Below are positions 1,179-39,614 of a stretch of DNA of 61,737 bases, one piece after another. Under the pieces are notes generated by a model. The model had not been told where the DNA came from, did not search any database, and worked only from the letters and a program-made list of their open reading frames with translations. A program made the position numbers and the translations under genes. Numbering within the stretch: the first letter of the stretch is position 1; the number at the start of each line of letters is the position of its first letter. Origin of the DNA: an uncultured Acidimicrobiales bacterium (GTDB lineage Bacteria > Actinomycetota > Acidimicrobiia > Acidimicrobiales > Poriferisodalaceae); contig CAYGMW010000001.1 in assembly GCA_964350975.1 (NCBI GenBank), forward strand, positions 1-61,737. Reading direction: 5' to 3'.

Positions 1179-1568
1179 TCAGCGGGCGAGTACTGGAGAT
1201 CCGTGATGCAGAACCATCAGCCAGCCGTCGTCGACGCGGCGGAACACGTTCGTGGCCGCAATCGTCCCCTGCGCCTGCTCGTCGAGCAGGTTCTCGTCCA
1301 ACGTGACAATCGCGAGCGTCTCGGTGACGCTCACCGCGACATTGGTGACGACAAACTGGTTGCGGCCAGGACCTCCGAAGATCCCAGCCCAGGATGCCCG
1401 AACATCGTCCCACCCGCGCAAGATCGGCCAACCGGGATGGATGCACACCACATCGTTGGAGTGGGACCAGACCGCGTCCATAGCCTCAAGGCTGCGTTGT
1501 TCGTGGGCGTCGTAGAACGCCTGGTTCGCGGCCACAACTTCAGCGAAGACGGGGTCGCCTAGCGACAC
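1179..1568 (-). CDS. NTF2-like (SnoaL/DUF4440-type) protein
   Basis: Track ORF is 1179..1652. The conserved part is VAANQAFYDAHEQRSLEAMDAVWSHSNDVVCIHPGW...DDGWLMVLHHGSP. Start is set at the in-frame GTG 1568 (GGGTGG a few nt upstream). Start is uncertain. Confidence 0.6.
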   Translation of the reverse strand: MSLGDPVFAEVVAANQAFYDAHEQRSLEAMDAVWSHSNDVVCIHPGWPILRGWDDVRASWAGIFGGPGRNQFVVTNVAVSVTETLAIVTLDENLLDEQAQGTIAATNVFRRVDDGWLMVLHHGSPVLAR

Positions 1569-10018: not shown

Positions 10019-10792
10019 CTATGGGGTGGCCAGGCGGGCGAAACCGCCGTCGGAGTCGATGACCTGGCCGGTCAGCCAGCCGCCCTCGTCGGACAGCAGG
10101 AAGCGAACCAGATTGGCGGCATCGCTCGGGAGCGACACCCGGCCGATCGGCGTGGCGGCCGTGAGCCGAGCGAGTAATTCGGGGCTCATCCATCCCGTAT
10201 CGGTGGGCCCTGGGTTGATGGCGTTGACCGTGATGCCGAGCGGTGCTAGTTCGGCCGCGATCGACAGGGTCATCCAATGCACGGCCCCCTTCGACATGGC
10301 GTAGGCAACCGAACCCGTCAGTGGGGGACCGCTCAGGAAGCTCACGATTCGGCCAGGACCAAGATCAGCTGAGTACCGGGTCGCGAACTGTTGGCACAGC
10401 AGATACGTCGACCGGACATTGATGGCCATGTGACGATCGAGTTCGGGCCCGTCGATGTCGAAGATGCCGCCGCCGGGGTCGTGGGTGTGCACATTGACGA
10501 GGGCTCGTACGGGCCCAAACGCGGCCTCTGCGGCATCGAATACTGTCGCCGCGGCAGCCGGGTCGGCCATATCTGCCTCGATGCCCTGGGCCCCGGTGTC
10601 GGTGAGGAGTTCGGCGACCTCGGTGGGGTTGGAGCCCCAGGTCATCGACTCGTCATAGGGCGTCCACCAGGTGGTGAACACCTTCCAACCAGCGGCGGTC
10701 AGCGACCGTACGACCTCAGACCCGATGCCGATCCGGCGACTCGCACCGGTGACAATAACGACGCCTCGACGATCGGCTGGAGCTGTGGTCAT
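10019..10792 (-). CDS. SDR family oxidoreductase
   Basis: 257 aa. It has VTGASRRIGIG (TGxxxxxG), YAMSK (YxxxK) and NAINPGPTDT. Confidence 0.88.
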   Translation of the reverse strand: MTTAPADRRGVVIVTGASRRIGIGSEVVRSLTAAGWKVFTTWWTPYDESMTWGSNPTEVAELLTDTGAQGIEADMADPAAAATVFDAAEAAFGPVRALVNVHTHDPGGGIFDIDGPELDRHMAINVRSTYLLCQQFATRYSADLGPGRIVSFLSGPPLTGSVAYAMSKGAVHWMTLSIAAELAPLGITVNAINPGPTDTGWMSPELLARLTAATPIGRVSLPSDAANLVRFLLSDEGGWLTGQVIDSDGGFARLATP

Positions 10793-10832: not shown

Positions 10833-11891
10833 TTACCGCAGCGCGATGCGCCCGGTGCCTGAGGCGGTGGAACCGACGGCCGCGGCCTGATGTCCGCTGG
10901 CAGCGAGCGACGTGAGCACGGTTGCGGCCTCGCCTGGGTCGACGCCGAAGATCAGTCCGCCCGAGGTCTGAGCATCGGCGAGCAACAGCTTTGTCAGCTC
11001 GCTGTGAGTTCCGACATCGATGCGATCGTCGATCCAGGTCAGGTTGCGCCGCGTGCCGCCCGGGATCATTCCCTCGGTCGCGAGATCGACAGCTCCGGGC
11101 AAGAACGGGATCGCGTCGACCTCGAGGCGAACATCGACCGCCGATTCGAGGGCCATGCGGCCGAGATGCCCGAGCAACCCAAACCCGGTGACGTCGGTGC
11201 AGCCCGTCGCTCCCGCCGCGAGGGCGGCCCGCGAGGCCAGACCGTTCAGGCGGGTCATCGACTCGATCGCGGCCGCCGCGACGTCAGGTGATGCCACATC
11301 GTTCTTGATGGCTGTGGTCACGACCCCAACACCGAGCGGCTTGGTCAAGATGAGGGTCTGACCAGCCAACAGCCCGGCGTTGGTGAGGATGCGGTCCGGG
11401 TGGACTTCGCCAACCACACACATGCCGTATTTGGGCTCGGGGTCGTCGATGGTGTGACCACCAGCAACGATGAAGCCGCCTGCGAGCGCAATGTCGTTTC
11501 CGCCAGCCAGCACCTCGCCCAGCATGTCGGTGGAGAGAGCGTCGGTGTTCCAGCCCACCAGGTTCAGCGCCAGCATGGGCGTGGCACCCATGGCATAGAT
11601 ATCCGACACGCTGTTTGCGGCCGCGACCCGACCCCACGCCCGGGCATCGTCGACCACGGGGGTGATGAAGTCCGCCGTCAGTACGAGGGCGCGCTCGTTC
11701 GACAGCTGCCAGACGGCCGCATCGTCACCAGTGTCGGTGCCGACCAGCAGCTTGGAGCTGGTGCCAGGGGTCAATTGGCGCACCACGTGCGCCAGCTCGC
11801 CGGGAGCGAGCTTGCAGCCTCAACCAGCGCCGTGACTGAACTGGGTCAGCCGGGGCCTGGAGGCATGATTGCTCGCAGTCGATTCGGACAT
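10833..11891 (-). CDS. selD: Selenide, water dikinase (selenophosphate synthetase) with in-frame UGA (Sec24)
   Basis: Track ORF 10833..11786 is SelD-like (GTDTGDDAAV, SDIYAMGATP, etc.). The same frame upstream reads ATG(11891) MSESTASNHASRPRLTQFSHGAG-TGA-GCKLAPGELAHVV. This is the SelD glycine-rich N-terminal loop, with TGA where E. coli has Cys17. An in-frame stop 7 codons upstream of the ATG bounds the start. Confidence 0.88.
11778..11819 (-). promoter_or_regulatory. Candidate bacterial SECIS region (two adjacent hairpins directly 3' of the UGA)
   Basis: The mRNA reads UGA GGCUGCA-AGCUCGC-UCCCG-GCGAGCU-GG. This is a 7-bp perfect stem (11812..11806 pairing with 11800..11794) with a 5-nt loop, starting 7 nt after UGA. 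It is followed by GCGCAC-GUG-GUGCGC, a 6-bp stem at 11792..11778. Confidence 0.4.
11820..11822 (-). other. In-frame UGA, predicted selenocysteine codon of selD
   Basis: Plus-strand tca at 11820..11822 is TGA on the minus strand. It is 23 codons after the ATG at 11891 and in frame with the downstream SelD ORF. Confidence 0.8.
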
Positions 11892-11939
11892 GGCGACGAC
11901 GCTACCGCCTCAGTAGCCGTGGCCAGCAGCGCTGGCCCG

Positions 11940-12920: not shown

Positions 12921-14798
12921 CTACTTCGGTGCGGCGAACAGGCACATGGCCAAGGGCGGAACCGTCACGGTGATCGAATGGTCATAGCCATGAGACGCCT
13001 CGTCTTGAGCGCCGACTGCCCGATTGAGCAGCCCGCTTCCGCCGTAGGCCAAGTCGTCGCTGTTGAGCATCTCTAGCCAGGTGCCCGCCCGCGGTATCCC
13101 GATGCGGTAGTCGTGACGGGGTACCGGCGTGAAGTTGCACACGACGAGTACCGAACGCTCGCCGGGCGCATGCCTCATGAATGCCACCACGCTGTTTTCG
13201 GCGTCGTCTCCAATGATCCAGGAGAACCCCGACGGCGACGCATCGACTCGATGCAGGCTGGGCTCTGATCGATACACCCGGTTGAGCGCGCCAACCCAGT
13301 CGAGTACCCCTGAGTGTCCCGAATGCTGCAACAGCCCCCATGGCAACTCGCGTTCGTGGTCCCACTCGTACGGGTCGCCAAACTCCGAACCCATGAACAT
13401 CAGCTTCTTGCCTGGGATGCCGTACTGGTAACCAAACAGGAGCCTGAGGCCTGCGAACTGTTGCCACCGATCGCCCGGCTGACGATCGAGCAGCGAGCCC
13501 TTGCCGTGCACCACCTCGTCGTGGGACAACGGCAACATGAAGTGCTCGTTGAACGCATACACCATCCGGAACGTCAGCTCGTTGTGGTGCCAGCGCCGGT
13601 GGATTGGATCTTCGCTGATGTAGCCCAGGGTGTCGTTCATCCAACCCATGTCCCACTTGAGGCCAAACCCCAGCCCGCCACCATCGGTTGGCTGGGTGAC
13701 GCCTGGCCATGCCGTCGATTCCTCGGCGATGGTCATGGCGTCGGGATGGTGCAGATAGATCCGTCGGTTCAGTTCTTGCAGGAAGCTGATCGCACCAAGA
13801 TTCTCGTTGCTGCCATATTCGTTTGGAATCCACTCGCCTTCGTTGCGGGAGTAGTCGCGATACAGCATCGACGCGACAGCATCGACCCGGATTCCGTCGG
13901 CGTGATAGCGCTCCATCCAGAACCGGGCGCTCGACAACAAGAAGCTGCGGACCTCATGTCGGTCGTAGTTGAAGATGCCGCTTTTCCAGTCTGGGTGGAA
14001 ACCCATACGAGGATCGGCGTGCTCGTAGAGGTGCGAACCGTCGAACTGGGCCAGACCGTGGGCATCGTTGGGGAAGTGGCTGGGTACCCAGTCCAAGATG
14101 ACCCCGTAGCCCCGCTGGTGCAGCAGGTCGATCATGAACATCAGATCCTGCGGCCGGCCGTAGCGGGCCGTAGCGGCGAAGTAGCCGGTGGTTTGATAGC
14201 CCCACGATCCGTAGAACGGATGCTCCATGACGGGTAACAGTTCGACATGGGTGAACTGGGTGCGGTCGAGATAGTCGGCGAGCTGCGCCGCGATCGCGCG
14301 ATAGCCGCCCGGTTCGTATCGCCACGACCCAAGATGGAGCTCATAGACCGAGATTGGCGCGTCCTGGGCGTTGCGGTCGCCACGGCTCGACATCCAAGCC
14401 GAGTCGCCCCATTCATAGGTCAGGTCGGCAATCCGAGAAGCGGTTGCTGGTGGTTCCTCGGTCGAGAACCCGACTGGGTCGGCCTTGTCCAGGACCGCCC
14501 CATCGGCGGTGATGATCCGATATTTGTACCGATCGCCCGCCGATGCTCCTGAGATTCGGCCCGACCAGATGCCAGCGTCAGATCCGGTGAGCGGCGACGC
14601 GTCGCCGTCCCACTCGTTGAAGTCGCCGATCACCGACACCGAGCGAGCCGCAGGCGCCCACACCCGGAACGTGCAGCCGCGTTCGTCGACCTGGGCGCCC
14701 AACAAATGGGACAACCCATCGTGTGTTCCCTCCGAAAACCGCCACAGGTCATTGCCGTTGAGGGGGTCAGCGGGATGAATTTCGGACTCTTTCGGCAT
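12921..14798 (-). CDS. glgB: 1,4-alpha-glucan branching enzyme
   Basis: Track ORF is 12921..14900. Start moved to the internal ATG 14798 ([13 protein letters not shown]...). GH13 motifs are [22 protein letters not shown] and AEESTAWPG. Confidence 0.9.
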
Positions 14799-14827
14799 CG
14801 GGCCACAATATGGGGCAATGTGGGGAG

Positions 14828-16081
14828 ATGCTTGAGGTTGTTTCCCGCCCGAAAGTTCTGAGCATCGTCCTTGCCGGCGGTGAAGGCAAACGGTTGGCAC
14901 CGCTCACGCTCGACCGAGCCAAGCCAGCGGTGCCGTTCGGCGGCCACTATCGCCTCATCGACTTTCCGTTGTCGAACCTTGCCAACGGGGGATATCGCAA
15001 GATTGTGGTGCTCACCCAGTACAAGAGCCACAGCCTCGACGTCCACCTGTCGAGGACGTGGCGGCTGAGCACTCTCCTTGGCAACTATGTGACGTCGGTG
15101 CCTGCCCAGATGCGCCAGGGGCCCCGATGGTTCCTCGGGTCGGCCGACGCCATCTATCAGAACCTCAACCTGCTCGAAGATGAGCGGCCCGACTATGTCT
15201 TTGTGTTTGGTGCCGACCACATCTACCGGATCGATCCACGCCAGATGCTCGACCACCACATCGCCACCGGCGCTGGTGTGACTGTTGCCGGCATTCGGGT
15301 TCGCAAAGACGAGTCCGACCAGTTCGGCATCATCTCGGCCCCCTCCGGAACCAAGATCGACTCCTTCATCGAAAAGCCGGCCCCAGACTCCATCGATGGG
15401 CTCGCTGACAACCCCAACGAGGTCCTGGCCTCGATGGGCAACTATGTGTTCAGCACCAAGGCACTCGTCAACTTGTTGCACGAGAACCAGTCCCGACCCG
15501 GTACTCGCCACGACATCGGCGGCGACCTGATTCCGATGATGGTCGGCAAGGGCGACGCCCACGTCTATGACTTCACGAACAATGTGGTTCCCGGCCAAGA
15601 GACCCAGGAGCACTACTGGCGCGACGTCGGCACCCTTGACAGCTACTACGACGCCCACATGGATCTCATCGACGACTATCCGGCGTTCGACCTCTACAAC
15701 GCTGAATGGCCGATCTACACCTTGGGCCGCACCTCGCCGCCCGCCAAGATCGTCAGCAGCGGGATCCACGGCGAGTCGTCAGTGCGCCGCTCATTGCTCA
15801 GCAATGGCGTCGTCGTGGCCGGAGCCAAGGTGCGCGACTCGGTCCTGTCCCCCGGAGTGCGGGTCGAGGGTGGAGCCAAGGTCGGCAACTCGATCTTGCT
15901 CGACGGAGTTGTCATTGGCGAAGGTGCCCAGGTCCGCCACGCAGTGCTCGACAAGAACGTGGTGGTGCCGCCGGGAGCGCGTATTGGCTACGACGAAGAA
16001 TTCGACCGAGCGAACTACACCGTGTCAGACAACGGTGTCGTGGTGATCGCCAAGGGCGGCCGCGTCAACTGGTCGAGCTGA
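14828..16081 (+). CDS. glgC: Glucose-1-phosphate adenylyltransferase
   Basis: Track ORF is 14810..16081. [30 protein letters not shown] is the canonical GlgC N-terminus. Start is either ATG 14810 or ATG 14828. Confidence 0.9.
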
Positions 16082-17447
16082 TCTGGCGGTACAGGTCGAT
16101 GTGGGTAGAGGCAGGTCCTGCCCAGGACCAGTCAGTGGTCATGCCGCGGGTCTGCATCGCTGCTTTGCGACCGGCGTGGCGCACGCCGCGAACCCCACGA
16201 TGGATGGCATCGACGACGCCTACCGCGTCAACCGTGGACGACACGAAACCGGTGCCGGTCGAGCGGTGCACATCTGCGTCGATCACTGTGTCGTGGAGGC
16301 CGCCAACGTCGGTGACGATTGGCAAACAGCCATAGGCCATGGCTTGCATTTGGGCCAGACCGCACGGCTCAAAACGGCTGGGCATCAAGAACAAATCTGA
16401 TCCGGCGAAGAGCCGATGAGCCAGCGGTTCGTCGTAGCCGTCGTAGAACCAGATCGTGTCGGGATGGGCTGCTGCGGCCGCGGCCAGTTCCTCGCTGAGC
16501 CATGGCGAACCGGCGCCGAGAATGGCCAATCGAGCCGGGACAGTTGGCAAGAATCGGGTGGCTTCCAGGGCAAGGTCGATGCCCTTTTGTTCGACCAGGC
16601 GGCTGACCACCCCGATGATCGGCACATTGTTGTCAGCCCAGCCGATCTCTTCGGCTAGGGCGGTTCGGCACGCCACCCTGCCGGTGCGGTCGTCGGCTGA
16701 AAAGTGGGCTGCGATGTGAGGATCGCTTTCAGGGTTCCACACCGACACATCGATGCCGTTGCGGATGCCCACCAACCGGTCACCCAAGCTGGCCAAGCGG
16801 GCGTGTAACCCCATGCCCGACTCTTGGGTGACGATTTCGGCCGCATAGTTCGGGCTCACTGCCACGACCCGGTCGACCAGTTCGATCGCGCCAGCGAGCG
16901 GATTCGCAGCGTCGTACCACGCAAAGCGGTGGGCATCGCGGGTCACCAGATCGAGCCAGCCCCGGTTCATGACGCCCTGGTAGCCCAAGGTGTGGATCGT
17001 CAACACCGTCGGGATCCGGGTTGTCATCAGGCCCACCGCGGCGGCGGTGTGCCAGTCGTTGAGATGGACGACGTCGGGTGTGGTCGCATCGGCGAGGGCC
17101 GCAACGACGGCCGAGAACGCCATGAACCGGCGGTCGTTGTCGGGCCACCCTTCGCCGTTGTTGTCGACATAGGGATGGGGGCGATCCATGCCAGGGACGT
17201 GCACGAGGATCAGGTCGCCGACGACCTTGTGGTTGCCCCGTCGGATGCGAACGTCGCCGATCCAGGCCGGCGTGTCAACGAGGATCTGGCTCTGGTTGTC
17301 CAGCTCGACGCCGCCGTAATCGGGCAACACAAGGTCGATCTCAAGGCCCTCGGCCCGCAGCGCCTTGACCAGACCCGCCGCGGCCTCGGCGAGACCGCCA
17401 ACGCGTGCCACCGGCGTGAGCTCAGCGGTCGCAAACAGAACCTTCAT
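16065..17447 (-). CDS. glgA: Glycogen synthase (GT5, ADP-glucose type)
   Basis: 460 aa. [30 protein letters not shown] carries the KxGGL-type motif. It overlaps the glgC 3' end convergently by 17 bp. Confidence 0.92.
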
Positions 17448-19552
17448 GCTTCACCTGACTTGAGTCGTCGCAGCAGCACCACCGACCAGGCTCCAATCTC
17501 CCACTTTTCGTTGCTGGAAATCTCAGCGCCGCGATCGTGATCGGTGGACGTGTCGACCTCGACCACCCATTGCGACCCGCCCAGGCCGGTTGGCACGACA
17601 AAGGTGATCGGCTCACGGTGAGCATTGAAGAACGCGAGGAAACTGTCGTCGACAATACGTTCGCCATGCGGGCCGGTGGCAGTAATCGACTCGCCGTTCA
17701 AGAACACAGCCAACGATCGGGCATAGCCAACTGACCAGTCTTCGTCGGTCATCTCCGAGCCGTCAGGTCGGTACCAGCCCATGTCGTGCACTTCGGCACC
17801 GTGGATGGGTCGGCCCTCAAACCACCGGCGGCGGCGAAACACCGGGTGCCTCGCTCGCAGACGAATCAGGCGTCGAACAAACGCGAGCAGTTCGGTGTCA
17901 GCCCCGGCCCAGTCGATCCACGAGACCTCGTTGTCTTGGGCATAGGAGTTGTTGTTGCCACCTTGGGTGCGGCCGAGTTCGTCGCCCGCAAGCAGCATCG
18001 GGACTCCTTGTGACAAGAACAAGGTTGCGAGCATCGAACGACGCCTCGTCGCCCGGACCTCATTGATCTCCGGATCGTCGGTTGGACCCTCGATGCCGGA
18101 GTTCCATGACCGATTGTGAGACTCGCCGTCGCGGTTGTCTTCGTTGTTGGCTTCGTTGTGTTTGTGGTCATATGACACCAGGTCGGTCAGGGTGAAACCG
18201 TCGTGGGCGGTGATGAAATTGATGCTCGCTGATGGGTTGCGGCCCGACCACGCATACAGGTCTGAGCTCCCGGTGAACCGTGACGCAAAGTCGGCCAACG
18301 ACTGGTCCGCGCTGCGCCAGTAGTCCCGCACACCATCTCGGTACTTACCGTTCCACTCCGACCACAAGGGCGGAAAGTTGCCGACCTGATAGCCGCCAGC
18401 GCCGACATCCCACGGTTCGGCGATGAGCTTGACCCCATTGATCACCGGGTCCTGGTGGATGAGGTCAAAAAACGAGGACAAGCGATCGACTTCGTGCAGG
18501 CCACGGGCGAGTGCTGCGGCCAGATCGAACCGGAACCCGTCGACATGCATGTCGAGAATCCAGTACCGCAGGCTGTCCATCATCAGCTGAAGCGTCTGGG
18601 AGTGCCGCATGTTCAAGCTGTTGCCGGTACCGGTGAAGTCGACGTAGTAGCGCTGATCGTCTGGGTTCAGGCGGTAATAGGCCCGGTTGTCGAACCCCTT
18701 GAGCGACAACAACGGCCCGAGGTGATTGCCTTCGGTGGTGTGGTTGTAGACCACATCCAAAATGACCTCGATGCCGACGGAGTGGAAGGCCTTGACCATT
18801 GCCTTGAATTCCGACACTTGCTGGCCCTGATCGCCGCTCGACGAATAGGGCCCGTGGGGCGACAAGAACGCCAGGGTGTTGTAGCCCCAGTAGTTCGTGA
18901 GGCCCCGCTGAACCACGGTGTGTTCGGACAAGAAATGGTGCACCGGCATGAGTTCAATAGCGGTGATGCCGAGATCGACGAGGTGGTCGAGGATTGAGGG
19001 GCATGCCATGCCGGCGTAGGTGCCGCGGAGTTCCTCGGGCACGTCGGGGTGGATGATGGACATACCCCGGACGTGGGCCTCGTAGATGACGCTCTCGTGG
19101 AGGGGAACATTTGGCCGGACGTCGTCGCCCCAGTCGAAGGCAGGATCGATGACGACACATTTGGGCATGAACGGGGCGCTGTCGCGCGTGTCAGGAATGT
19201 CGAGTGCGTCAGGACGGTGCCCGTAGACCTCGTCGCCCCACTGGATCTCGCCCGTCACCGACTTTGCGTAGGGATCGACGAGCAGCTTGGCCGGGTTGCA
19301 CCGATTCCCAGCAGCAGGGTCCCATGGGCCGTGTACCCGAAACCCGTACTTCTGCCCAGCCGTGATGCCCGGAAGGAATCCGTGATGCACGAACGCGGTG
19401 ACCTCAGGCAGGCGAAACCGGGTCTCGATGTTGTTGTCGTCGAACAGGCAGACTTCGATGTAGTCGGCTACTTCTGAATACACCGAGAAGTTCACCCCCT
19501 CGTCGCTGAGCGTGGCGCCGAGGGGGTACATGTTGCCGGGCCAGATGATCAT
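17444..19552 (-). CDS. glgX: Glycogen debranching enzyme
   Basis: 702 aa. It has YNHT, GFRFDLAAAL, AEPWD and FITAHDGFTL (GH13 subfamily 11 motifs). It overlaps the glgA start by 4 bp. Confidence 0.93.
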   Translation of the reverse strand: MIIWPGNMYPLGATLSDEGVNFSVYSEVADYIEVCLFDDNNIETRFRLPEVTAFVHHGFLPGITAGQKYGFRVHGPWDPAAGNRCNPAKLLVDPYAKSVTGEIQWGDEVYGHRPDALDIPDTRDSAPFMPKCVVIDPAFDWGDDVRPNVPLHESVIYEAHVRGMSIIHPDVPEELRGTYAGMACPSILDHLVDLGITAIELMPVHHFLSEHTVVQRGLTNYWGYNTLAFLSPHGPYSSSGDQGQQVSEFKAMVKAFHSVGIEVILDVVYNHTTEGNHLGPLLSLKGFDNRAYYRLNPDDQRYYVDFTGTGNSLNMRHSQTLQLMMDSLRYWILDMHVDGFRFDLAAALARGLHEVDRLSSFFDLIHQDPVINGVKLIAEPWDVGAGGYQVGNFPPLWSEWNGKYRDGVRDYWRSADQSLADFASRFTGSSDLYAWSGRNPSASINFITAHDGFTLTDLVSYDHKHNEANNEDNRDGESHNRSWNSGIEGPTDDPEINEVRATRRRSMLATLFLSQGVPMLLAGDELGRTQGGNNNSYAQDNEVSWIDWAGADTELLAFVRRLIRLRARHPVFRRRRWFEGRPIHGAEVHDMGWYRPDGSEMTDEDWSVGYARSLAVFLNGESITATGPHGERIVDDSFLAFFNAHREPITFVVPTGLGGSQWVVEVDTSTDHDRGAEISSNEKWEIGAWSVVLLRRLKSGEA

Positions 19553-21531
19553 CCGGTGACGTCGTTCAGCGCTGGGCGGTACAGCTCGCGCTCATAGTCG
19601 GCGACCATACGACCAGCAGTGACGAGTGGTCCGAGGCTCCTCCAGTTGTCCCTCATGCGCTCAAGCCATGCCGTCGACCACGGGGTGCCGTCGGCGAAGT
19701 ACTCCGCTGCGATCTTGTTGGTCAAGATATCCAGTGCCGCTGCTGATTCGGCTCGGTCGCGTGTGGCGGGGTCGGTCGAGTCGCTGTCGGGGATGGTCCA
19801 ACCATTGCGGCCGTCGGCCATCTCGTCCCACCATCCATCGCTGATCGAGCAGTTCAGGCCGCCGTTGAGCGCCGACTTCTCGCCGCTGGTTCCGGACGCC
19901 TCGTGGGGTCGGATCGGGTTGTTGAGCCACACATCGCATCCCGCGTACATCGCCTGGGCGACGGCCACGTCGTAGTCGGGGATGAACGTGAAGCGGTCGT
20001 TCGCGGCCGACGTTTTGCCATAGGCCAGCACGTCTGCAAGCACGGCCTTGCCCTCGTTGTCGGCAGGGTGGGCTTTGCCCGCAAAAACGAAATGCACCGG
20101 GCGGTCATCGCTGGCCAACAAGGCGCCAAGCGCCTCGGGGTGCTGGAGCAAAAGGTTTGCCCGCTTGTACGTCGCAAATCGCCGGGCAAAGCCAACGATG
20201 AGGGCGTCGGGGTCAATCGTGTCGCCGGTGCGTTCGGCGACGAGTTCGGCCAGCTCGACGGAACCGGCTCGGCGCAGCGCCCGGATGGTGTCGTCGTCAA
20301 GGGCCGACACATTGGCCCACGCCGCGGCGTCGCCGTTCTCCCAACCAGCTCCGAGCCGCTCGTCGAACGCGTCTTGGAGCCGGGGCATGGTCCAGGTTCT
20401 GGCATGGATCCCGTTGGTAATCGACCCAATCGCATCGGCGCCGTCGACGCCTGCGAACAGGTCGCGGCTGACCTCGCCGTGCAACTTGGACACACCGTTG
20501 GCTCGCTTGGACGCCTTCAAGCACAGGGCGGCCATATTGAACGCGGCGATCGGGTCGGTTGGGTCGGTTCCGAGCTCGAGGACCTCGTCGATGGTCACCC
20601 CCCACCGCTTCGCCCACGGCGCAAGGTGTCCTGCAGCGAGGGCTGGTTCGAAGCGGTCGATACCTGCGGGAACTGGTGTGTGGGTCGTGAAGACCAAGCG
20701 TGGCCTGATGGTCTCGAGGGCTTCAGTGAGCGTGGCACCTGCCGCGATCTCGCGATCGAGCAGGTCGAAGATCAAGAAGCCGGCGTGACCCTCGTTGAGG
20801 TGGCGCACAGGAGCATCCCACCCCATGGCTGCCAGCGCACGGGAGCCGCCAACGCCCAGAATGAGTTCCTGTTCGATGCGGTGTTGGCGATCGCCGCTGT
20901 ACAGGCGATCGGTGATGGCCCGATGCGTCGCGGAGTTCGATGCAACATCGGTGTCGAGCAACAGCAGCGAGATGCGCCCGACATCGAAACGCCACACGTG
21001 GGCCGTGACGTCAGCGTCCGCAATCGGGACGGTCACCTCGATGCCAGTGTCGTAGCAACCAAGGTCGGCTGGTTCGTATGTTTCGTAGCGCTCGCCCTGA
21101 CGTCCGCCGTCGACTGACTGGCGGAAGAACCCGCCTCGGTAGAACAGGCCAACACCGCACAACGAGATGCCAAGGTCGCTCGCTGACTTCATATGGTCGC
21201 CTGCGAGGATGCCGAGACCGCCGGAGTACTGGGGCACGAGCTCGCTCACCCCGAACTCGGGCGAGAAGTACGCCACGTCAGGGTTGTGTGGCCTGCTCGC
21301 GGTGAGTGCGGCGAGGGCTTCCGCGTGGGCCGCGATGCGGTCGCAAAAATCGGCATCATCGGCCAAGGTCTGGACCTCGGCGGCGCTGAGTTCGCGGGCA
21401 AGAGCCGCAGGATGACGTTCGGCGTCGAAGTTCGGCAGCTCGTTGAACAGCGCTCTGGCCGACTCGTTCCAGCTCCACTGATGGTTCGAGGCGAGGGCCC
21501 CGAGCCGTTCGATCATGTCGGAAGGGTTCAC
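19549..21531 (-). CDS. glgP: Alpha-glucan phosphorylase (GT35, short actinobacterial/archaeal type)
   Basis: 660 aa. It has YFSPEFG, GGLGILAGDH, and FARRFATYKR (PLP-lysine region). It overlaps glgX by 4 bp. Confidence 0.88.
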   Translation of the reverse strand: MNPSDMIERLGALASNHQWSWNESARALFNELPNFDAERHPAALARELSAAEVQTLADDADFCDRIAAHAEALAALTASRPHNPDVAYFSPEFGVSELVPQYSGGLGILAGDHMKSASDLGISLCGVGLFYRGGFFRQSVDGGRQGERYETYEPADLGCYDTGIEVTVPIADADVTAHVWRFDVGRISLLLLDTDVASNSATHRAITDRLYSGDRQHRIEQELILGVGGSRALAAMGWDAPVRHLNEGHAGFLIFDLLDREIAAGATLTEALETIRPRLVFTTHTPVPAGIDRFEPALAAGHLAPWAKRWGVTIDEVLELGTDPTDPIAAFNMAALCLKASKRANGVSKLHGEVSRDLFAGVDGADAIGSITNGIHARTWTMPRLQDAFDERLGAGWENGDAAAWANVSALDDDTIRALRRAGSVELAELVAERTGDTIDPDALIVGFARRFATYKRANLLLQHPEALGALLASDDRPVHFVFAGKAHPADNEGKAVLADVLAYGKTSAANDRFTFIPDYDVAVAQAMYAGCDVWLNNPIRPHEASGTSGEKSALNGGLNCSISDGWWDEMADGRNGWTIPDSDSTDPATRDRAESAAALDILTNKIAAEYFADGTPWSTAWLERMRDNWRSLGPLVTAGRMVADYERELYRPALNDVTG

Positions 21532-28170: not shown

Positions 28171-29045
28171 CAACGGCACCGAGTAGCGACCCCGGGCAGG
28201 TGTGGCTGGGAGGTCGGGTGCCGGTGACCTTGCTGGCCGGATACCTCGGGGCGGGCAAGACCACGGTGGTCAACCAACTCCTGGCTTCGACCGAGCGCCG
28301 GCTCGCGATTCTTGTCAACGATGTCGGCCAGATCGCGGTGGATGCCGAGCTGTTGTCACGCCGTACTGACGGTGTGATCGAGCTGACGAACGGTTGTGTG
28401 TGTTGCAGCCTCGCTGGAGGCTTTGTTGACGCCCTCGAAGAGATTCGCAGCCGGCCCCGCCCCGATCATGTGGTGATTGAGTTGTCAGGAGTGGCCGAAC
28501 CGGCCCGGATTGCTCCCTGGGCGTCGACTGCGGGTTTTCGCCTCGACGGGGTCATGACCCTTGTCGATATTGACCAGATCGCCGATCGCCACAACCACCC
28601 CCGAACCCGTGACACGGTCGAACGCCAGATCGGTGCCTCCGACGTCGTCCTGCGGACCAAGATCGACCTGGCATCGCCTGCTGATGCGAGTGCGGCCAAC
28701 AAGCTCATCGCCCGATTGGCCCCATCTGCTCCGGTCGTCGACGTCGTCGATGGGATGATCGACGAAGCGCTGCTACTCGGCGTGCACCGCAACGAACCCG
28801 CGGTCGAAGCCACCCACCCGGTACCGAACCCTCACCATGTCGAGGTGGTCGATCGGCCCTTCAAGGATCGTGATGGCCTCGATGATTGGTTGGCGCAACG
28901 TTCGCCCGAGGTGGTCCGGATCAAGGGCACGGTGTGCTGTGCGGATGGCTCGACGTGGCGGGTCGATGTGGTCGGAGCCCGTCAGCGCGTGGTGGCCGAG
29001 GAGCGCCAAGAATCGAACGGACTCGTCGTCATCAGCGTGGGTTAG
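28167..29045 (+). CDS. COG0523/CobW-family G3E GTPase (putative metallochaperone)
   Basis: 292 aa. It has GYLGAGKTT (P-loop), GCVCCS (CxCC metal motif) and a C-terminal CobW_C-like domain. It has an ATGA overlap with the amidohydrolase. Confidence 0.88.
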   Translation: MTTAPSSDPGQVWLGGRVPVTLLAGYLGAGKTTVVNQLLASTERRLAILVNDVGQIAVDAELLSRRTDGVIELTNGCVCCSLAGGFVDALEEIRSRPRPDHVVIELSGVAEPARIAPWASTAGFRLDGVMTLVDIDQIADRHNHPRTRDTVERQIGASDVVLRTKIDLASPADASAANKLIARLAPSAPVVDVVDGMIDEALLLGVHRNEPAVEATHPVPNPHHVEVVDRPFKDRDGLDDWLAQRSPEVVRIKGTVCCADGSTWRVDVVGARQRVVAEERQESNGLVVISVG

Positions 29046-29641
29046 CCAAACAAGGGACCCGGTTGACCCTCGAGCCGCAGTAGCGCTTGCTTGGTTTCAA
29101 TGCCTCCGGCGAAACCAGTCATCGCGCCGCTTGACCCAAGGACCCGATGGCACGGAACGATGATCGACACCGGGTTGCGGCCGGTCGCAGCACCCACCGC
29201 CCGGCTCGCCGTCGGACGGCCGAGCGAGGTGGCGACCTCGCCATAGGTTGCAGTGGTACCGAACTTGATCGTGCTCAGCTGGGTCCAGACGAGCCGCTGG
29301 AAGTCGGTGCCGGCTGGGTCGAGTTCGATCGAAAAGGTCTGCCGCTCGCCGCCGAAGTAGCCGCCGAGCTGATCGGCAGTCTCACTGATGAGCTGTCGAT
29401 GACGCTGATTGGCAGGCCCAATCTGGTCGAGAACCACGCGACCTGGTCGTTCAACGGGCCACAAGATGGCCGCGAGACCGCGTTCGCTTACGACGATGGT
29501 GAGGTCGCCCACCGGTGACGCATAGGTGGACTGGGCAAGGGTGGTCGAGTGGGACTTCATGATGGCTCCAACGCAGTCTCGCAGGTCGAGGGAGACATCT
29601 TCTCCATCTCCTGGGTCGACGAGTGCGACAGATTCGGACAT
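29042..29641 (-). CDS. ogt: Methylated-DNA--protein-cysteine methyltransferase
   Basis: It has the IIVPCHRVLGSSG active-site PCHR motif. The track starts at TTG 29647. ATG 29641 (MSESVALV...) is preferred. Confidence 0.9.
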   Translation of the reverse strand: MSESVALVDPGDGEDVSLDLRDCVGAIMKSHSTTLAQSTYASPVGDLTIVVSERGLAAILWPVERPGRVVLDQIGPANQRHRQLISETADQLGGYFGGERQTFSIELDPAGTDFQRLVWTQLSTIKFGTTATYGEVATSLGRPTASRAVGAATGRNPVSIIVPCHRVLGSSGAMTGFAGGIETKQALLRLEGQPGPLFG

Positions 29642-29665
29642 AGTCAAGATGTGTCCGAATCTGTC
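29627..29665. promoter_or_regulatory. Perfect 14-bp inverted repeat GACAGATTCGGACA-N11-TGTCCGAATCTGTC between/over the divergent ogt and ada-alkA starts
   Basis: Read directly. The left arm is 29627..29640 and the right arm is 29652..29665, and they are exact reverse complements. The left arm covers ogt codons 1-5. The right arm ends 2 nt before ATG 29668. Confidence 0.5.
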
Positions 29666-29667
29666 CT

Positions 29668-31083
29668 ATGGATCGCGTCGACGATCGTCATGATCAGCCC
29701 ATGGTGAATGTCACTGCGGTCAGAACCACCGGTATCTATTGCCACTCAGGTTGTTCGGCGCGCCCGAACCCGGCGAACACCGAGACGTATCCGTCCCAGG
29801 TTGCTGCCGAAGTTGCGGGGTTTCGGCCCTGCCTGCGCTGCCGCCCCGACCGGTTGACGGGGTCAGAGCTCGACGCCAGCGCACCAGCGCCGTTGCGTCG
29901 GGCGCTCGAACTCATTGGAGCGGGCATGCTCGACCAGCGCACAGAGTCGGACCTCGCGGCGGCAGTTGGGTACAGCGAGCGGCACCTGCGCCGGCTGTTC
30001 GTCGATCATCTCGGAGCGACACCCAACGTCCTCGGGCGGTCGCGTCGAGCTCACTTCGCCCGCCGCCTTCTCGATGAGTCACAGCTGAGCGTGACGGACA
30101 TCTGTTTCGCGTCGGGCTTCAATTCGGTGCGCCAGATGAATCGGGTGGTGCAGCAGACGTTTGCGTTCACCCCGACTGAGCTGCGGCGGCGTCGCCGTCG
30201 AACCCCCGACTTCATCGATGGGGGACTCGGGCTCACCTTGCCGGCGCCAGACCTTGACTGGCAGGCAACCCTTGACCACCTCGGGCCTCGTTGTACGCCC
30301 GGCGTCGAAGCCGTGATCGGCTCGATGTATGCCCGCACCTTCACCCTGTGCGGCCATGTCGGAGTGGTCGAGTTGGGCCAACAAGTGCCCAACGAGCTCC
30401 GAGTGGTTGTCCATCTGCCGGACTTCGCGGGGGTTATCGATGTGGTGCATCGGGTTCGCCGCCTCGTTGGACTCGATCTTCCCAACGCGGGCTCGGTGCC
30501 TGCGCTCGCCCACGACGAACTCCTGGCCCCCCACATTGCGGCTGCCCCATCGACTCGGGTCCCAGGGGCATGGGATCGCTTCGACAGCTTGATCAGGATC
30601 GTGGTCGGACAGCAGATCAGTGTGGTGGGCGCGTCAACCATGACCGGTCGACTGGTGGCAGCGTCCACAGCCCCGATCGAAGGGTTGGGGCGGCTCGGAC
30701 TCGATCGACGGTTCCCGACACCGTCTGAGCTGGCGGACACCGACCTCGAGTCGTGCGGGTTCACCTCGGCGCGTGCCAACACCATTCGCGAGCTTGCCGC
30801 ACGCGTGGCCGACGGCCGGGTGACCTTGGACGCCCCAGCCGACGCGCTCACCGATGCTCTTGTTGACATTCGCGGCATCGGCCCGTGGACTGCCGGCCTC
30901 GTCGCGATGCGGGTGTCGCGCTCGCTCGATGCGTTCGCCCCGAGCGACCTCGGACTACGCGATGGGGTCGGGCGCGTGCTCAACTGCGGACGTGTCGACG
31001 CAAAGACCGTGGCGACGACCGCCGAGCGCTGGTCGCCATTTCGGTCAGTGGCAGCGGCCGTGCTGTGGGGTATCAGGCCCTAA
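29668..31083 (+). CDS. alkA: Ada (Zn/methyl-acceptor + AraC HTH) - AlkA (DNA-3-methyladenine glycosylase II) fusion
   Basis: 471 aa. N-terminal YCHSGCSARP...FRPCLRCRP is the Ada Cys4 domain. The AraC-type HTH is ...YSERHLRRLF...ICFASGFNSVRQMNR. The C-terminal HhH-GPD region is LVDIRGIGPWTA. Confidence 0.9.
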   Translation: MDRVDDRHDQPMVNVTAVRTTGIYCHSGCSARPNPANTETYPSQVAAEVAGFRPCLRCRPDRLTGSELDASAPAPLRRALELIGAGMLDQRTESDLAAAVGYSERHLRRLFVDHLGATPNVLGRSRRAHFARRLLDESQLSVTDICFASGFNSVRQMNRVVQQTFAFTPTELRRRRRRTPDFIDGGLGLTLPAPDLDWQATLDHLGPRCTPGVEAVIGSMYARTFTLCGHVGVVELGQQVPNELRVVVHLPDFAGVIDVVHRVRRLVGLDLPNAGSVPALAHDELLAPHIAAAPSTRVPGAWDRFDSLIRIVVGQQISVVGASTMTGRLVAASTAPIEGLGRLGLDRRFPTPSELADTDLESCGFTSARANTIRELAARVADGRVTLDAPADALTDALVDIRGIGPWTAGLVAMRVSRSLDAFAPSDLGLRDGVGRVLNCGRVDAKTVATTAERWSPFRSVAAAVLWGIRP

Positions 31084-31686: not shown

Positions 31687-31953
31687 TCAGTGGCCGTCCG
31701 GAAGGCCGAGGTCGTGGCGTTCGGCGGCCTTGATGCCGTAGCCGAACACGATCGCGGGGGCAAGCAGCAGCGAGCCAACAATGAGGCTGGCCGTGATCAG
31801 GGTGGTGATCACGGTGTTGAAGCTGGCGACAAAGCCGACGATGAACAACACGATGGAGGCCAAGAACAACCCATATCCGGCGCGCTGACCAAATGACACC
31901 AGCCGAGCAATCTGGGCTCGCCGGATCAAGATCGGATCGACTGGGTCGTTCAT
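31687..31953 (-). CDS. Small two-helix membrane protein, unknown function
   Basis: 88-aa ORF with two hydrophobic segments (GYGLFLASIVLFIVGFVASF, TLITASLIVGSLLLAPAIVFGYG). Its stop lies 1 nt before the TetR ATG. Confidence 0.6.
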   Translation of the reverse strand: MNDPVDPILIRRAQIARLVSFGQRAGYGLFLASIVLFIVGFVASFNTVITTLITASLIVGSLLLAPAIVFGYGIKAAERHDLGLPDGH

Positions 31954-32013
31954 GACATGCCTTGCGTTCGTTGGTGGCCTACGAGTCGGCGGCGCGGGAT
32001 CAAGGTCACCACG

Positions 32014-33947: not shown

Positions 33948-34116
33948 TGGCTCACCTCGGCTTCCTGGTCTCGGGTAGTCATCATGCGGGGAGCCCACAA
34001 CGGTAGGGGCTGGTTGGGGCTTTGTTGGTTCGCTGGGCCGGCATCGGGGTTTCGACGTGGGCCATCACCTCGTTGTCGTCGACCGACATGGCCACGACCC
34101 AACTAGTCTCAGCCGA

Positions 34117-34803
34117 ATGTCGACGGCCATTTCTACGAGCGAGGCCGTCGTGCTACTCGGACGTTTTCCTGCGCTCGCCGGGGCCTCGGCCACGATCGAG
34201 CAGGGCGAGGTGGTGCTGCTCCGAGGGCCAAACGGGGTCGGCAAGACCACTTTTCTTCGGATGTGCGCCGGACTTTTGGCGGTGACATCAGGATCCGTGA
34301 ACGTGCTCGGCCACGACCTCACCCAGGCCCGACGTTCGGTCCGCAAACACGTGGGGCTGCTGGGCCACCAGACCTACCTCTATGACGACCTGACCGTTCG
34401 TGACAATCTCGAGTTCTGGTCGGCAACAGTCGGAGTCGGCAAGGAGTTCGCTGTCGCCGCTGCTCGCCGCGTCGGTATCGAACACCGGCTGATGACCGTC
34501 GAAGTCGAGCGATTATCAGCTGGTCAGCGGCGCCGTGTCGCGCTGGCTGTGCTGGTGGCACGCCGGCCGCGTTTATGGCTCCTCGACGAGCCCCACGCGG
34601 GGCTCGACCAAGATGGTCGCGACATGCTCGATGGGCTGCTTCGAGAAGCGGCCTCGGCTGGCGCCACGGTGGTGTTTGCTAGCCACGAACTGGAGCGAGC
34701 CCACGCGGTTGCTGACCGAGAGCTGCTGTTCGCGGGCGGGTGCATCGTTTCCGATACTCGCCTGGTTCACCGAACGCCTCCTGAGGCATCGAGCCCCGCA
34801 TGA
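34117..34803 (+). CDS. ccmA: Heme exporter ATP-binding protein CcmA
   Basis: Start moved to ATG 34117 (track 34057). It has GPNGVGKTT (Walker A), LSAGQRRRVAL (signature) and LWLLDEP (Walker B). Confidence 0.88.
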   Translation: MSTAISTSEAVVLLGRFPALAGASATIEQGEVVLLRGPNGVGKTTFLRMCAGLLAVTSGSVNVLGHDLTQARRSVRKHVGLLGHQTYLYDDLTVRDNLEFWSATVGVGKEFAVAAARRVGIEHRLMTVEVERLSAGQRRRVALAVLVARRPRLWLLDEPHAGLDQDGRDMLDGLLREAASAGATVVFASHELERAHAVADRELLFAGGCIVSDTRLVHRTPPEASSPA

Positions 34804-35474
34804 GCTGGTGGCGCGCAGCGTGGCTGATTGCACGCAAGGACCTCACGATCGAACTCAGGTCGCGTGGCACGATCAATCAGGTGGCGCCGCTCGGGCTGTT
34901 GATCCTGGTTGTGTTCGCGTTCGCGTTCGACCAGAACGCCCAGCTTCTTGAGCTCGGTAGCCCCGGCTTGTTCTGGGTTGGAGTGCTGTTCAGCGGCATC
35001 TTGACGGTGCAGCGGGCCTTCACCACTGAAGGTTCCGACGGGCTCACCGACGCACTGCGGCTCAGCGGTATTGGTCCCGCATCGATCTATCTCGGCAAGA
35101 CGCTGGCGGTCGCCGTCCAGCTGTTGGCGTTGGAGGTGGTCTTGCTGGCCGGAATCATCGTGCTGTTCGACGGCTCTGTCGACGATTGGCTCCTGCTCGG
35201 CGTTTCGGCCCTGGTCGGCACGGGGGCGTTCGCGGCGGCTGGCTGTATCTATGGGGCGATGTCGCTGGGCTTGCGTGTGCGCGAGACACTGTTGCCGTTG
35301 TTACTCATGCCCGTGGTGGCTCCGCTGCTGCTTGCGGGCAGTCGAGCATTCGAACACGCGCTCGGCGTTGGCGACGAACCTGGGTGGAGTTGGGTTGGAT
35401 TGTCCGGGGTGATGTTCGTTGTTTACCTCGCCCTGGGTACGCTGTCGGCCAGCCCGCTCTTGGAGGATGGTTGA
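34800..35474 (+). CDS. ccmB: Heme exporter permease CcmB
   Basis: 224 aa and polytopic. It has the FTTEGSDGLTDAL CcmB-type motif. It has an ATGA overlap with ccmA. Confidence 0.88.
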   Translation: MSWWRAAWLIARKDLTIELRSRGTINQVAPLGLLILVVFAFAFDQNAQLLELGSPGLFWVGVLFSGILTVQRAFTTEGSDGLTDALRLSGIGPASIYLGKTLAVAVQLLALEVVLLAGIIVLFDGSVDDWLLLGVSALVGTGAFAAAGCIYGAMSLGLRVRETLLPLLLMPVVAPLLLAGSRAFEHALGVGDEPGWSWVGLSGVMFVVYLALGTLSASPLLEDG

Positions 35475-35476
35475 TC

Positions 35477-36259
35477 GTGCGTGCCGCGACCTCGACAGCT
35501 ACTCGTTCGGCAACCGCTTCGATCGCCACCCGCATTTTGGGATGGATGTCCCTCGCGTCACTGAGCGCCGTCGCCTACCTCGGCTTGGTGGTCTCGCCCC
35601 GCGACATCAACCAAGGCGAGGCGGTTCGGTTGATGTACCTACATTTGCCGGTGATCTGGATCGCATATGGCGCGTTCATCACCTCAGCGGTTGCCAGTGC
35701 CTGGCTGTTGTGGCGTGGTCCTCGTCGACCGGACCAGGGCCGCCATCTTGACCGGGTTGCCGGCGCTGCCGCCGAAGTCGGCGTCGTGTTCACGGCCTTG
35801 ACCCTCATCACCGGTGCAATGTGGGGCCGCATCACCTGGGGCGTCTACTGGCAATGGGACGCCCGCCTCACCACCACGGCAATCATGTTCGTGAGCTACC
35901 TCGGTTATCTGGCGTTGCGTCGAATCCCAGCCGACCCCGTGGTGAGATCGCGCCGTGCCGCTATCGCAGCGCTGGTGTCGGCGGCCAACTTGCCCCTTGT
36001 TCACTTCAGCGTCGACTGGTGGGTCACCTTGCACCAAGAAGCCAGCCTGCGCTCGCTGGCCGATCCCGACATCACTGGCGACATGCTCATGGTCTTGTTG
36101 TTCTCAGTTGTTGCGTTCACCATCGTCGGACTGTGGCTCATGACCCACCGCTACCGCGTCATCCGGCTCGAGGAGATCCTCGAAGAAGAGGGCCTCGAGG
36201 CCGCTCTCGCCAGCCGGCGCAGTGAGCGAGCCAGCCGCGTCACCGCGGGGGTGAACTAA
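35477..36259 (+). CDS. ccmC: Heme exporter protein CcmC
   Basis: Track ORF 35186..36259 overlaps ccmB. The in-frame GTG 35477 lies 2 nt after the ccmB stop. The WWD motif is WGVYWQWDARLT. Confidence 0.88.
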   Translation: MRAATSTATRSATASIATRILGWMSLASLSAVAYLGLVVSPRDINQGEAVRLMYLHLPVIWIAYGAFITSAVASAWLLWRGPRRPDQGRHLDRVAGAAAEVGVVFTALTLITGAMWGRITWGVYWQWDARLTTTAIMFVSYLGYLALRRIPADPVVRSRRAAIAALVSAANLPLVHFSVDWWVTLHQEASLRSLADPDITGDMLMVLLFSVVAFTIVGLWLMTHRYRVIRLEEILEEEGLEAALASRRSERASRVTAGVN

Positions 36260-36435
36260 TGGAATCCTGGGGGATGATCATCAGCGGATACGGCGTCGTT
36301 TTTGGTGCCGTTCTCCTATATGCCTTGGTGGTCGTGCGACGCGGCCGCCGTCTTGCAGCAGAACTCGGGCTGGGGACGCCCGACAACGAGGGGGATGCAC
36401 TGGCAGGCGACCAGCACAACCCTCCATGGAACTGA
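36259..36435 (+). CDS. ccmD: Heme exporter protein CcmD (58 aa, absent from ORF track)
   Basis: Own translation: MESWGMIISGYGVVFGAVLLYALVVVRRGRRLAAELGLGTPDNEGDALAGDQHNPPWN*. It has a single TM helix followed by a basic RRGRR patch. It has a TAATG overlap with the ccmC stop. Confidence 0.8.
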   Translation: MESWGMIISGYGVVFGAVLLYALVVVRRGRRLAAELGLGTPDNEGDALAGDQHNPPWN

Positions 36436-36460
36436 TTCTCAACCCCACAAGTGAGTCGAA

Positions 36461-37057
36461 GTGAACGACGATCCCACAGTTGCCGGTTTCGACGATGGGC
36501 TTGATCTCGCCCCGCGAACCGACCTTGACGATGCCCAAGCGCTCCGCCGTGAATTGAGGCAGGGCCAGCGAAAGTGGTTGGTCTTGGCTGGCGTGGTCAT
36601 CGTTGCCGCGCTCGGGTTCTTGGTGCTGCAATTCTTGCGAGACGCCACGGTGTTCTTCCGCAACGTCGATGAAGCCGTCGCCGAGCGCGAAGAACTTGGC
36701 GATCGACGGTTCCGGCTTCAAGGCCGGGTGATCCCCGACTCGGTGCGCGTCGACGGCGACGTGGTGTCGTTCGAGGTCCTGTATGGCTGTGCCACCGCGT
36801 CGGTTCGTCACCTGTCTGACCCACCCGAGCTCTTCGACAACCCGTGGATTCCCGTGGTACTTGAGGGCAACTGGGAGCCCGGCGACGTCGAACTCGTGTC
36901 GGGCCCAGATGACCACGTCTTTGTGTCGGACCGGATGCTCATCAAGCACACCAATGAGTACTCAGCCGATTATGAGGATCGGGTCGAAACCAATCTTCCA
37001 GACGACTTCTTGGTGGGTTGCGATCTGACCCCAGCCGATGTCGGGCTCGAGTTGTGA
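36461..37057 (+). CDS. ccmE: Cytochrome c-type biogenesis heme chaperone CcmE
   Basis: 198 aa with a GTG start. It has an N-terminal TM anchor and an OB-fold core RLQGRV...V.F. The heme-binding motif is KHTNEY (HxxxY). Confidence 0.88.
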   Translation: MNDDPTVAGFDDGLDLAPRTDLDDAQALRRELRQGQRKWLVLAGVVIVAALGFLVLQFLRDATVFFRNVDEAVAEREELGDRRFRLQGRVIPDSVRVDGDVVSFEVLYGCATASVRHLSDPPELFDNPWIPVVLEGNWEPGDVELVSGPDDHVFVSDRMLIKHTNEYSADYEDRVETNLPDDFLVGCDLTPADVGLEL

Positions 37058-39012: not shown

Positions 39013-39614
39013 CCACCAGCGATTACGAGCCCGACTACACCGAGTTCGACGAGTTCGACGACGCTCAACCAGTCCCCGCATGGGTAAAGGTTGGGGTGGC
39101 GGCGGCCGGTCTGGCGCTGGTCATGTTCATTGCTGTGCTTGCCGTCAGCGACGGTAGCGACGGCGAGGGTCAGGTCGATTCGCCGTTGATCGGCCGCGCC
39201 GTTCCGCCGCTGGTCGGCACCACCCTCGACGGCGGCACCTTCGATATCGACTCGGCTCAAGGTCAGTGGGTGTTGCTCAACTTCTTTGCCAGCTGGTGTG
39301 TGCCCTGCCAGGTAGAGCACCCCGAACTTGTCGAGTTCTCGGACCGACATCGCGATGGTTCGGCCACCGTGGTCAGCGTGGTGATGGGCGACACGGTCGA
39401 AAACACCGAGCGCTTTTTCGCCGAGCGCGGCGGCGACTGGCCGGTGTTGATCGATGCCGACAGCGCTCCAGCGCAGTTTGTTGTCGTACAGGTGCCCGAG
39501 TCGTTCCTTGTTGCCCCATCGGGGCTCGTCGTGGCGAAATGGATTGGCGACATCACCGCCGACATGGTCGATGGCGTGATCGACGAACTCACGGCGCCGG
39601 CGGTCCAGCCATGA
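39009..39614 (+). CDS. ccmG: Thiol:disulfide oxidoreductase CcmG/DsbE
   Basis: 201 aa. It has a TM anchor and a thioredoxin fold with FFASWCVPC. It has an ATGA overlap with ccmF. Confidence 0.88.
   Translation: MTTSDYEPDYTEFDEFDDAQPVPAWVKVGVAAAGLALVMFIAVLAVSDGSDGEGQVDSPLIGRAVPPLVGTTLDGGTFDIDSAQGQWVLLNFFASWCVPCQVEHPELVEFSDRHRDGSATVVSVVMGDTVENTERFFAERGGDWPVLIDADSAPAQFVVVQVPESFLVAPSGLVVAKWIGDITADMVDGVIDELTAPAVQP

Follow-up and report, generated by a model that had tools for sequence, protein, structure and literature searches.

Among bacterial selenoproteins, selenophosphate synthetase (SelD; selenide, water dikinase) and FdhA are the two with the widest distribution (PMC1794560), and the selenocysteine (Sec) type of SelD ranks second among prokaryotic selenoprotein families in how widely it occurs (PMC13188914, PMC1794560). 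According to the citation given in a preprint, the earliest description of a Sec-containing SelD is that from Haemophilus influenzae (Guimaraes et al., 1996, cited in bioRxiv 10.64898/2026.04.03.716425). For Actinomarina of the class Acidimicrobiia, the same preprint reports that all 84 complete genomes carry selA, selB, selC and selD, and that about half of the genomes encode a Sec-type SelD. Here, we analyzed a stretch of 61,737 nucleotides (contig CAYGMW010000001.1) from an uncultured Acidimicrobiales bacterium, referred to as the window throughout, which carries on its minus strand a selD gene with an in-frame TGA codon. Judged by its sequence and that of its relatives, the gene very probably encodes a functional Sec-type SelD. 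The finding is correct and well supported, but ordinary, with Sec-type SelD being known since 1996, and the current understanding is left unchanged by it. Modest additions are the clade-wide occurrence in uncultured Acidimicrobiales, for which no specific report of a Sec-type SelD was found in the searchable literature, a strongly covarying two-hairpin selenocysteine insertion sequence (SECIS), and an association with selenoneine (sen) genes in some relatives.

The predicted protein resembles the Sec-type SelD of H. influenzae, Aquifex aeolicus (PDB 2YYE/2ZOD) and Actinomarina in its family membership and in the position of Sec in the catalytic loop. As in the known genes of this type, the residue would be encoded by UGA, a stem-loop is located directly downstream inside the coding sequence, and the gene is truncated by gene callers in the same way. 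Differences from these systems concern the host lineage, which here is the uncultured Acidimicrobiales, the signal, which consists of two adjacent hairpins rather than one, and the location of the window gene, which does not lie beside selA, selB or selC. With SelD of Escherichia coli (PDB 3U0O) the window protein shares the loop SHGAG-C/U-GCK as well as Lys20, Asp51, Asp68, Asn87 and Asp91. In contrast to the window protein, E. coli SelD has a cysteine (UGC) at position 17 and no SECIS, and it lacks the seven additional N-terminal residues.

The selD reading frame and its in-frame UGA codon

The following features, all on the minus strand, define the gene.

10833..11891, minus strand: predicted full-length selD coding sequence of 352 codons, with Sec at codon 24 (from translation, TIGR00476/NF002098 and the 3U0O alignment)
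11910..11912, minus strand: in-frame TGA stop bounding the frame upstream, seven codons 5' of the ATG (from the sequence)
11889..11891, minus strand: ATG start; from the upstream stop to the UGA there is no other start codon (from the sequence)
11820..11822, minus strand: UGA, predicted Sec codon (codon 24), equivalent of E. coli SelD Cys17 (from translation and alignment)
11784..11786, minus strand: GTG used as false start by open reading frame (ORF) finders and public gene calls, giving a product of 317 amino acids without the catalytic loop

Reading of the sequence yielded a frame of 352 codons which runs from ATG 11891..11889 to TAA 10835..10833 and is interrupted only once, by the TGA 11822..11820. 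It translates as MSESTASNHASRPRLTQFSHGAG, followed by the TGA of codon 24 and then by GCKLAPGELAHVV... The closest in-frame stop 5' of the ATG, TGA 11912..11910, is the seventh codon before it, and no further ATG, GTG or TTG was found in frame between the two. In the relatives, an in-frame start was always present 13–25 codons 5' of the UGA. The ORF list opened selD at GTG 11786. The database proteins P0001 and P0241 start with MVRQL...; the latter is the window's own 5'-truncated product and falls in a 90% cluster. Truncation of Sec genes by gene callers is a recognized problem. Among the 120 closest database proteins nearly all had a length of 316–317 amino acids and were cut by gene callers at the same place. 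In public protein collections the window gene is stored, along with over 100 close relatives, as such a product without the catalytic loop, and phylogenetic trees, structure predictions or expression experiments starting from these entries would use an inactive fragment.

The protein identity was investigated with the 352-residue translation, in which U was replaced by C. The SelD equivalog profile TIGR00476 scored 364.2 bits (cut-off 125), with a match starting at residue 14, i.e., upstream of the TGA, while NF002098 scored 351.9 bits (cut-off 299). For the window's truncated product and its relatives the PurM-like domains PF00586 (AIRS) and PF02769 (AIRS_C) were found precomputed. The best match among solved structures was E. 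coli SelD (PDB 3U0O; query residues 13–347, 262 bits). In this alignment RLTQFSHGAG-U-GCK of the window protein falls on RLTQYSHGAG-C-GCK, the UGA-encoded position U24 on Cys17 and K27 on Lys20. Conserved as well are Asp51, Asp68, Asn87 and Asp91, which are residues of the ATP/metal site of SelD. Cys17 is an essential residue of the E. coli enzyme.

An original prediction, made from the letters of the window, had read the ATG at 11891, the TGA at 11822..11820 and the end of the gene at 10833, and all of these coordinates were correct. The in-frame stop that it placed seven codons before the ATG is the TGA 11912..11910. The prediction had also described the ORF starting at 11786 as 5'-truncated, an error it expected from standard gene callers in general; both views are borne out by the GTG start with its 317 amino acids and by the length of the public calls for the gene and its relatives. 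The assignment of the TGA to the Cys17/Sec position of the N-terminal SelD loop agrees with the alignment to 3U0O.

Five additional assemblies of this species, which stem from separate runs (loci L001–L004 and L089), contain the TGA in identical context. Scanning GTDB with a single genome for each species gave 80 selD loci. The 17 closest of them belonged to metagenome-assembled genomes (MAGs) of Acidimicrobiales, Acidimicrobiia or Actinomycetota, showed 61–73% identity and all had TGA at the same codon. Pseudonocardia, Streptomyces, Geodermatophilus and other actinomycetes had TGC or TGT at the equivalent codon. TGA was also found in three Mb-scale MAG contigs (L086–L088) and in 20 metagenome contigs of the same clade (L090–L108, L113). 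Thus, every orthologue examined from the Acidimicrobiales-like clade (~40 loci) possesses TGA at the equivalent of codon 24, and so do loci labelled Gemmatimonadota, Gaiellales and 'delta proteobacterium'. Over approximately 155 selD loci overall, roughly half had TGA and half TGC or TGT at this codon, with conserved flanking motifs.

In the ten codons 5' of the TGA (RLTQFSHGAG) the amino acids are kept, while synonymous sites vary, with a codon entropy of 1.15 versus 1.21 for the rest of the gene. The eleven codons from the TGA to GTG 11786, which include the Lys20 equivalent, are likewise conserved as protein. Going by this substitution pattern, selection at the protein level acts on the region upstream of the TGA. 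Conservation on either side of the TGA is not explained by a product starting at 11786. The argument of the original prediction, that conserved protein on both sides of the TGA favors recoding over a pseudogene, holds across many species.

A two-hairpin element downstream of the UGA codon

Directly downstream of the UGA two adjacent hairpins are located within the coding sequence.

11794..11812, minus strand: hairpin 1, AGCUCGCU-CCC-GGCGAGCU, 8 bp, beginning 8 nt past the UGA; conserved accessory stem, minimum free energy (MFE) –11.5 kcal/mol
11777..11793, minus strand: hairpin 2, GGCGCAC-GUG-GUGCGCC, 7 bp; probable SelB-binding SECIS core, MFE –11.4 kcal/mol

RNAalifold, applied to 28 Sec-type sequences with no prior structure given, yielded the same two hairpins. 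Base pairs were then counted over 75 distinct Sec-type sequences, using 500 shuffles as control. Pairing was found in 93.5% of the cells over both hairpins (hairpin 1 91%, hairpin 2 96.4%). Compensatory changes on both sides of a pair occurred in 10 of the 15 pairs (121 cells), i.e., in five of eight pairs of hairpin 1 and five of seven of hairpin 2. None of the 500 shuffles matched any of the pairing measures, and sliding the 3' partner by 1–3 columns lowered pairing to 31–41%. The first two bases of the hairpin 2 loop, G and U, were invariant in all 75 sequences. In 48 Cys-type homologues the same structure was paired in 55.8%, which was indistinguishable from shuffles. Synonymous variation over the hairpin codons compared to the rest of the gene was suppressed in the Sec set (0.71 versus 1.21), while the corresponding values for the Cys set were 0.90 and 0.96.

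The model of the bacterial SECIS comprises a loop of 3–9 nt with a G within its initial two positions, a stem of 4–16 bp, a distance of 16–37 nt from the UGA and an MFE of –7.5 kcal/mol or lower (PMC13188914). Hairpin 2, with its loop GUG, 7 bp, 33 nt from the UGA to the loop and –11.4 kcal/mol, lies within this model on all four counts. Hairpin 1 agrees in stem length (8 bp) and energy (–11.5 kcal/mol), but its loop is without G and only 15 nt away from the UGA. As it conforms to the model in all four respects, while hairpin 1 departs in two, hairpin 2 was taken as the probable SelB-binding SECIS core. Hairpin 1 is a conserved accessory stem, which may set the spacing or be the portion that the ribosome melts. 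With the bSECISearch model and with the SECIS of E. coli fdhF, hairpin 2 shares a small apical loop that opens with G-U and sits on a GC-rich stem of 7 bp. Unlike these, the window gene has an additional hairpin between the UGA and hairpin 2, with a CCN loop 15 nt away from the UGA, and this hairpin is conserved and covaries to an equal degree. A search for a bacterial SECIS after the UGA had been suggested together with the original prediction; a covarying, model-conforming stem-loop was found there in TGA-type genes only.

Loci with the two-hairpin element bear the labels Acidimicrobiales, Gemmatimonadota, Gaiellales and 'delta proteobacterium'. The combination of a covarying accessory stem with a G-U-loop stem may represent a distinct, selD-specific SECIS architecture. 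As a side observation, ARAGORN reported a 'tRNA-Arg (cct)' at positions 10019–10106 of locus L091, which is a false positive lying over the selD UGA and the two hairpins and is attributed to the tandem stem-loops.

Proposed decoding of the UGA, selenium genes and competing explanations

Upstream of the start codon one further feature was noted.

11899..11904, minus strand: TAGCGT, a –10-like TANNNT hexamer that ends 7 nt before the ATG; putative promoter element of a leaderless mRNA

A TANNNT hexamer just 5' of the start is typical of actinobacterial leaderless transcripts. In the majority of the related loci such a hexamer ends a few nucleotides (mostly 6–9) 5' of the in-frame start, and the remaining loci have a GGAGG-like Shine-Dalgarno sequence in its place. 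A scan for E. coli-type promoters and terminators around selD found nothing. The pattern suggests a leaderless selD mRNA and would place the start of transcription upstream of the UGA.

From the observed build of the gene, together with the conserved UGA and the covarying hairpins, the following route of decoding may be proposed. On what is probably a leaderless mRNA, translation would start at ATG 11891, and the ribosome would arrive at the UGA 11822..11820 in codon 24, which would be decoded as Sec instead of stop. The signal would be the SECIS within the coding sequence, formed by the two adjacent hairpins between 11812 and 11777, with hairpin 2 and its G-U-N apical loop 33 nt past the UGA as the likely binding site of SelB-Sec-tRNA(Sec). 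The product would then carry Sec in the glycine-rich N-terminal loop SHGAG-U-GCK, next to the conserved equivalent of Lys20. As SelD makes the selenophosphate for Sec-tRNA(Sec), its synthesis would depend on its own product and on the selenium supply. With a Sec-type SelD, these uncultured Acidimicrobiales would count among the organisms that use the 21st amino acid, and their selenium metabolism would be self-dependent and sensitive to supply.

Several results weigh against Sec insertion at this site. Neither selA nor selB nor a tRNA-Sec was detected in the 61.7-kb window by ARAGORN, Rfam and tblastn with E. coli SelA/SelB, and in approximately 40 Sec-type relatives none of the three was found within 10 kb of selD. 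ARAGORN recorded no tRNA at all in the window and no tRNA-Sec in 41 related loci. Protein searches for a SelA of Acidimicrobiales identified none and landed in Pseudonocardia and Nitriliruptoria. In the window, scans of codon-position GC and of ORF extensions gave no second selenoprotein gene, with selD alone qualifying. Furthermore, the 46-nt stretch with the hairpins folded just modestly better than shuffles (z = –1.65), so the case for the SECIS rests on covariation and not on energy. No Rfam match to a SECIS or a tRNA-Sec was obtained, neither in the whole window at the gathering threshold, where no Rfam family of any kind was hit, nor in the selD 5' region with E up to 10; for SECIS elements of bacteria such a lack of a match is expected. 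As the UGA and its SECIS have been conserved over long times, and given the Actinomarina precedent, we infer that selA, selB and selC are present elsewhere in the genome, in line with the full Sec machinery implied by the original prediction.

The TGA might alternatively be a true stop, leaving a pseudogene or an N-terminally truncated protein with the 317-residue product from GTG 11786 as its sole product, or no product. Gene callers give exactly this product, and the lack of Sec machinery in the window fits as well. However, the ~40 orthologues, with SelD identities to the window protein down to ~60%, retain the TGA at this codon, the ten codons before it and the eleven between it and the GTG, including the Lys20 equivalent, are conserved as protein, and the covarying hairpins go together with the TGA state. 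As is established for E. coli SelD, catalysis needs the Cys17/Lys20 loop, which a product from 11786 would be without. We consider this explanation highly improbable.

Similarly low is the probability that read-through of the UGA inserts some residue other than Sec, e.g., Cys or Trp via near-cognate or suppressor decoding, or a residue assigned by an altered genetic code. Low-level read-through of UGA with Trp or Cys does occur in bacteria, and Sec insertion at this site is deduced rather than directly observed. Nevertheless, 31 of the 59 predicted genes of the window end in TGA as their normal stop, more than in any other stop codon, which indicates the standard code and a recoding specific to the selD site. 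The codon moreover falls on the catalytic Cys/Sec position, and it is followed by a SECIS-conforming hairpin with an invariant loop G-U, for which a simple leaky stop would not select. Lowest of all we rate the chance that a TGC or TGT was turned into TGA by a mistake in sequencing or assembly. The source is indeed a metagenome-assembled contig, but the five further same-species assemblies from different runs contain the identical codon and context, and dozens of related species have TGA as well. Recoding of the UGA as Sec in a functional selD is therefore by far the preferred reading.

A number of candidates for selenium-related genes were rejected. The single SelB-like tblastn match, in L108, was TypA and not SelB. 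A SelA search seeded with the SelA of L020 returned only Pseudonocardia-like proteins, and the nearest SelA sister clade (representative search, neighbor-joining tree and profile search) proved to be Nitriliruptoria. In the window, two same-frame ORFs on the minus strand (687–1652), split by the TGA 1181..1179, turned out to be adjacent genes and not a selenoprotein gene: the upstream ORF encodes a complete SnoaL/NTF2-like protein, and the downstream ORF has its own ATG. A Pfam survey of almost all predicted genes of the window found no other selenium-related gene. As an observation on gene order, many or most of the Cys-type selD genes of actinomycetes (L020, L023–L026, L034, L045–L084) directly adjoin selA-selB; the Sec-type set with which they were contrasted comprised L005–L022 and L086–L108.

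Neighboring genes and the selenoneine genes of relatives

In the window, selD is neighbored by a gene for a 2-oxoglutarate (2OG)-Fe(II) oxygenase on the same strand, at a distance of 48 nt, and by a short-chain dehydrogenase/reductase (SDR) gene, with a glycogen cluster beside them. The neighboring genes for the 2OG oxygenase, SDR, RNase Z and GlgB were conserved only within the species, and no functional linkage to selD was found.

The selenoneine cluster consists of senA-senB-senC, with SenC being a SelD homologue (Kayrouz and Seyedsayamdost, bioRxiv 10.1101/2022.04.13.486033). A gene for SenA adjoins selD in six Sec-type relatives (L005, L086–L088, L090 and L091), and a senB-like gene was detected beside senA/selD in five of these six. 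In this respect the relatives resemble the SenC system, while the window gene does not. Unlike in the senABC cluster, the sen genes of the relatives are divergent from selD rather than overlapping; for senA-selD this holds in the four loci examined for orientation. In L005 (5686–8027) SenB, a glycosyltransferase, was recognized by TIGR04348 with 314.6 bits (cut-off 300), while SenA, which is EgtB-like, scored 416 bits with NF041186, just below the cut-off of 420. In the window, tblastn with senA and a senB fragment found neither gene across the 61.7 kb, so the selD gene of the window cannot be filed as senC.

The Acidimicrobiales clade may keep Sec decoding largely in order to make a Sec-type SelD that feeds the selenoneine pathway. 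If true, the entry enzyme of selenoneine synthesis in the sen-bearing relatives would be a selenoprotein. This proposal and that of a distinct SECIS architecture are tentative, and we regard them as rather unlikely to hold. The link to sen genes and the two-hairpin SECIS are small but useful additions for those who build selenoprotein finders.

Several other gene groups of the window were recorded. The glycogen cluster (12921–21531) encodes branching enzyme, ADP-glucose pyrophosphorylase (plus strand, 14810–16081), glycogen synthase, a debranching-type enzyme and a DUF3417 phosphorylase. At 34057–40911 the window has a complete gene cluster for System I cytochrome c maturation, which comprises ccmA, ccmB, ccmC, ccmE, ccmF, the thioredoxin-like ccmG, ccmH and a gene for a tetratricopeptide repeat (TPR) protein. 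At 29042–31083 a gene for an Ada/AlkA fusion (Zn-binding Ada domain, AraC helix-turn-helix and AlkA glycosylase) is divergent from an O6-methylguanine methyltransferase gene. Finally, a 232-nt gap on the minus strand (31782–32013) contains an unannotated small ORF for a hydrophobic peptide of about 88 amino acids (MNDPVDPILIRRAQ...). This ORF lies in frame with and 3' of the TGA stop of a DUF5317 gene, and it probably encodes a separate small membrane protein.

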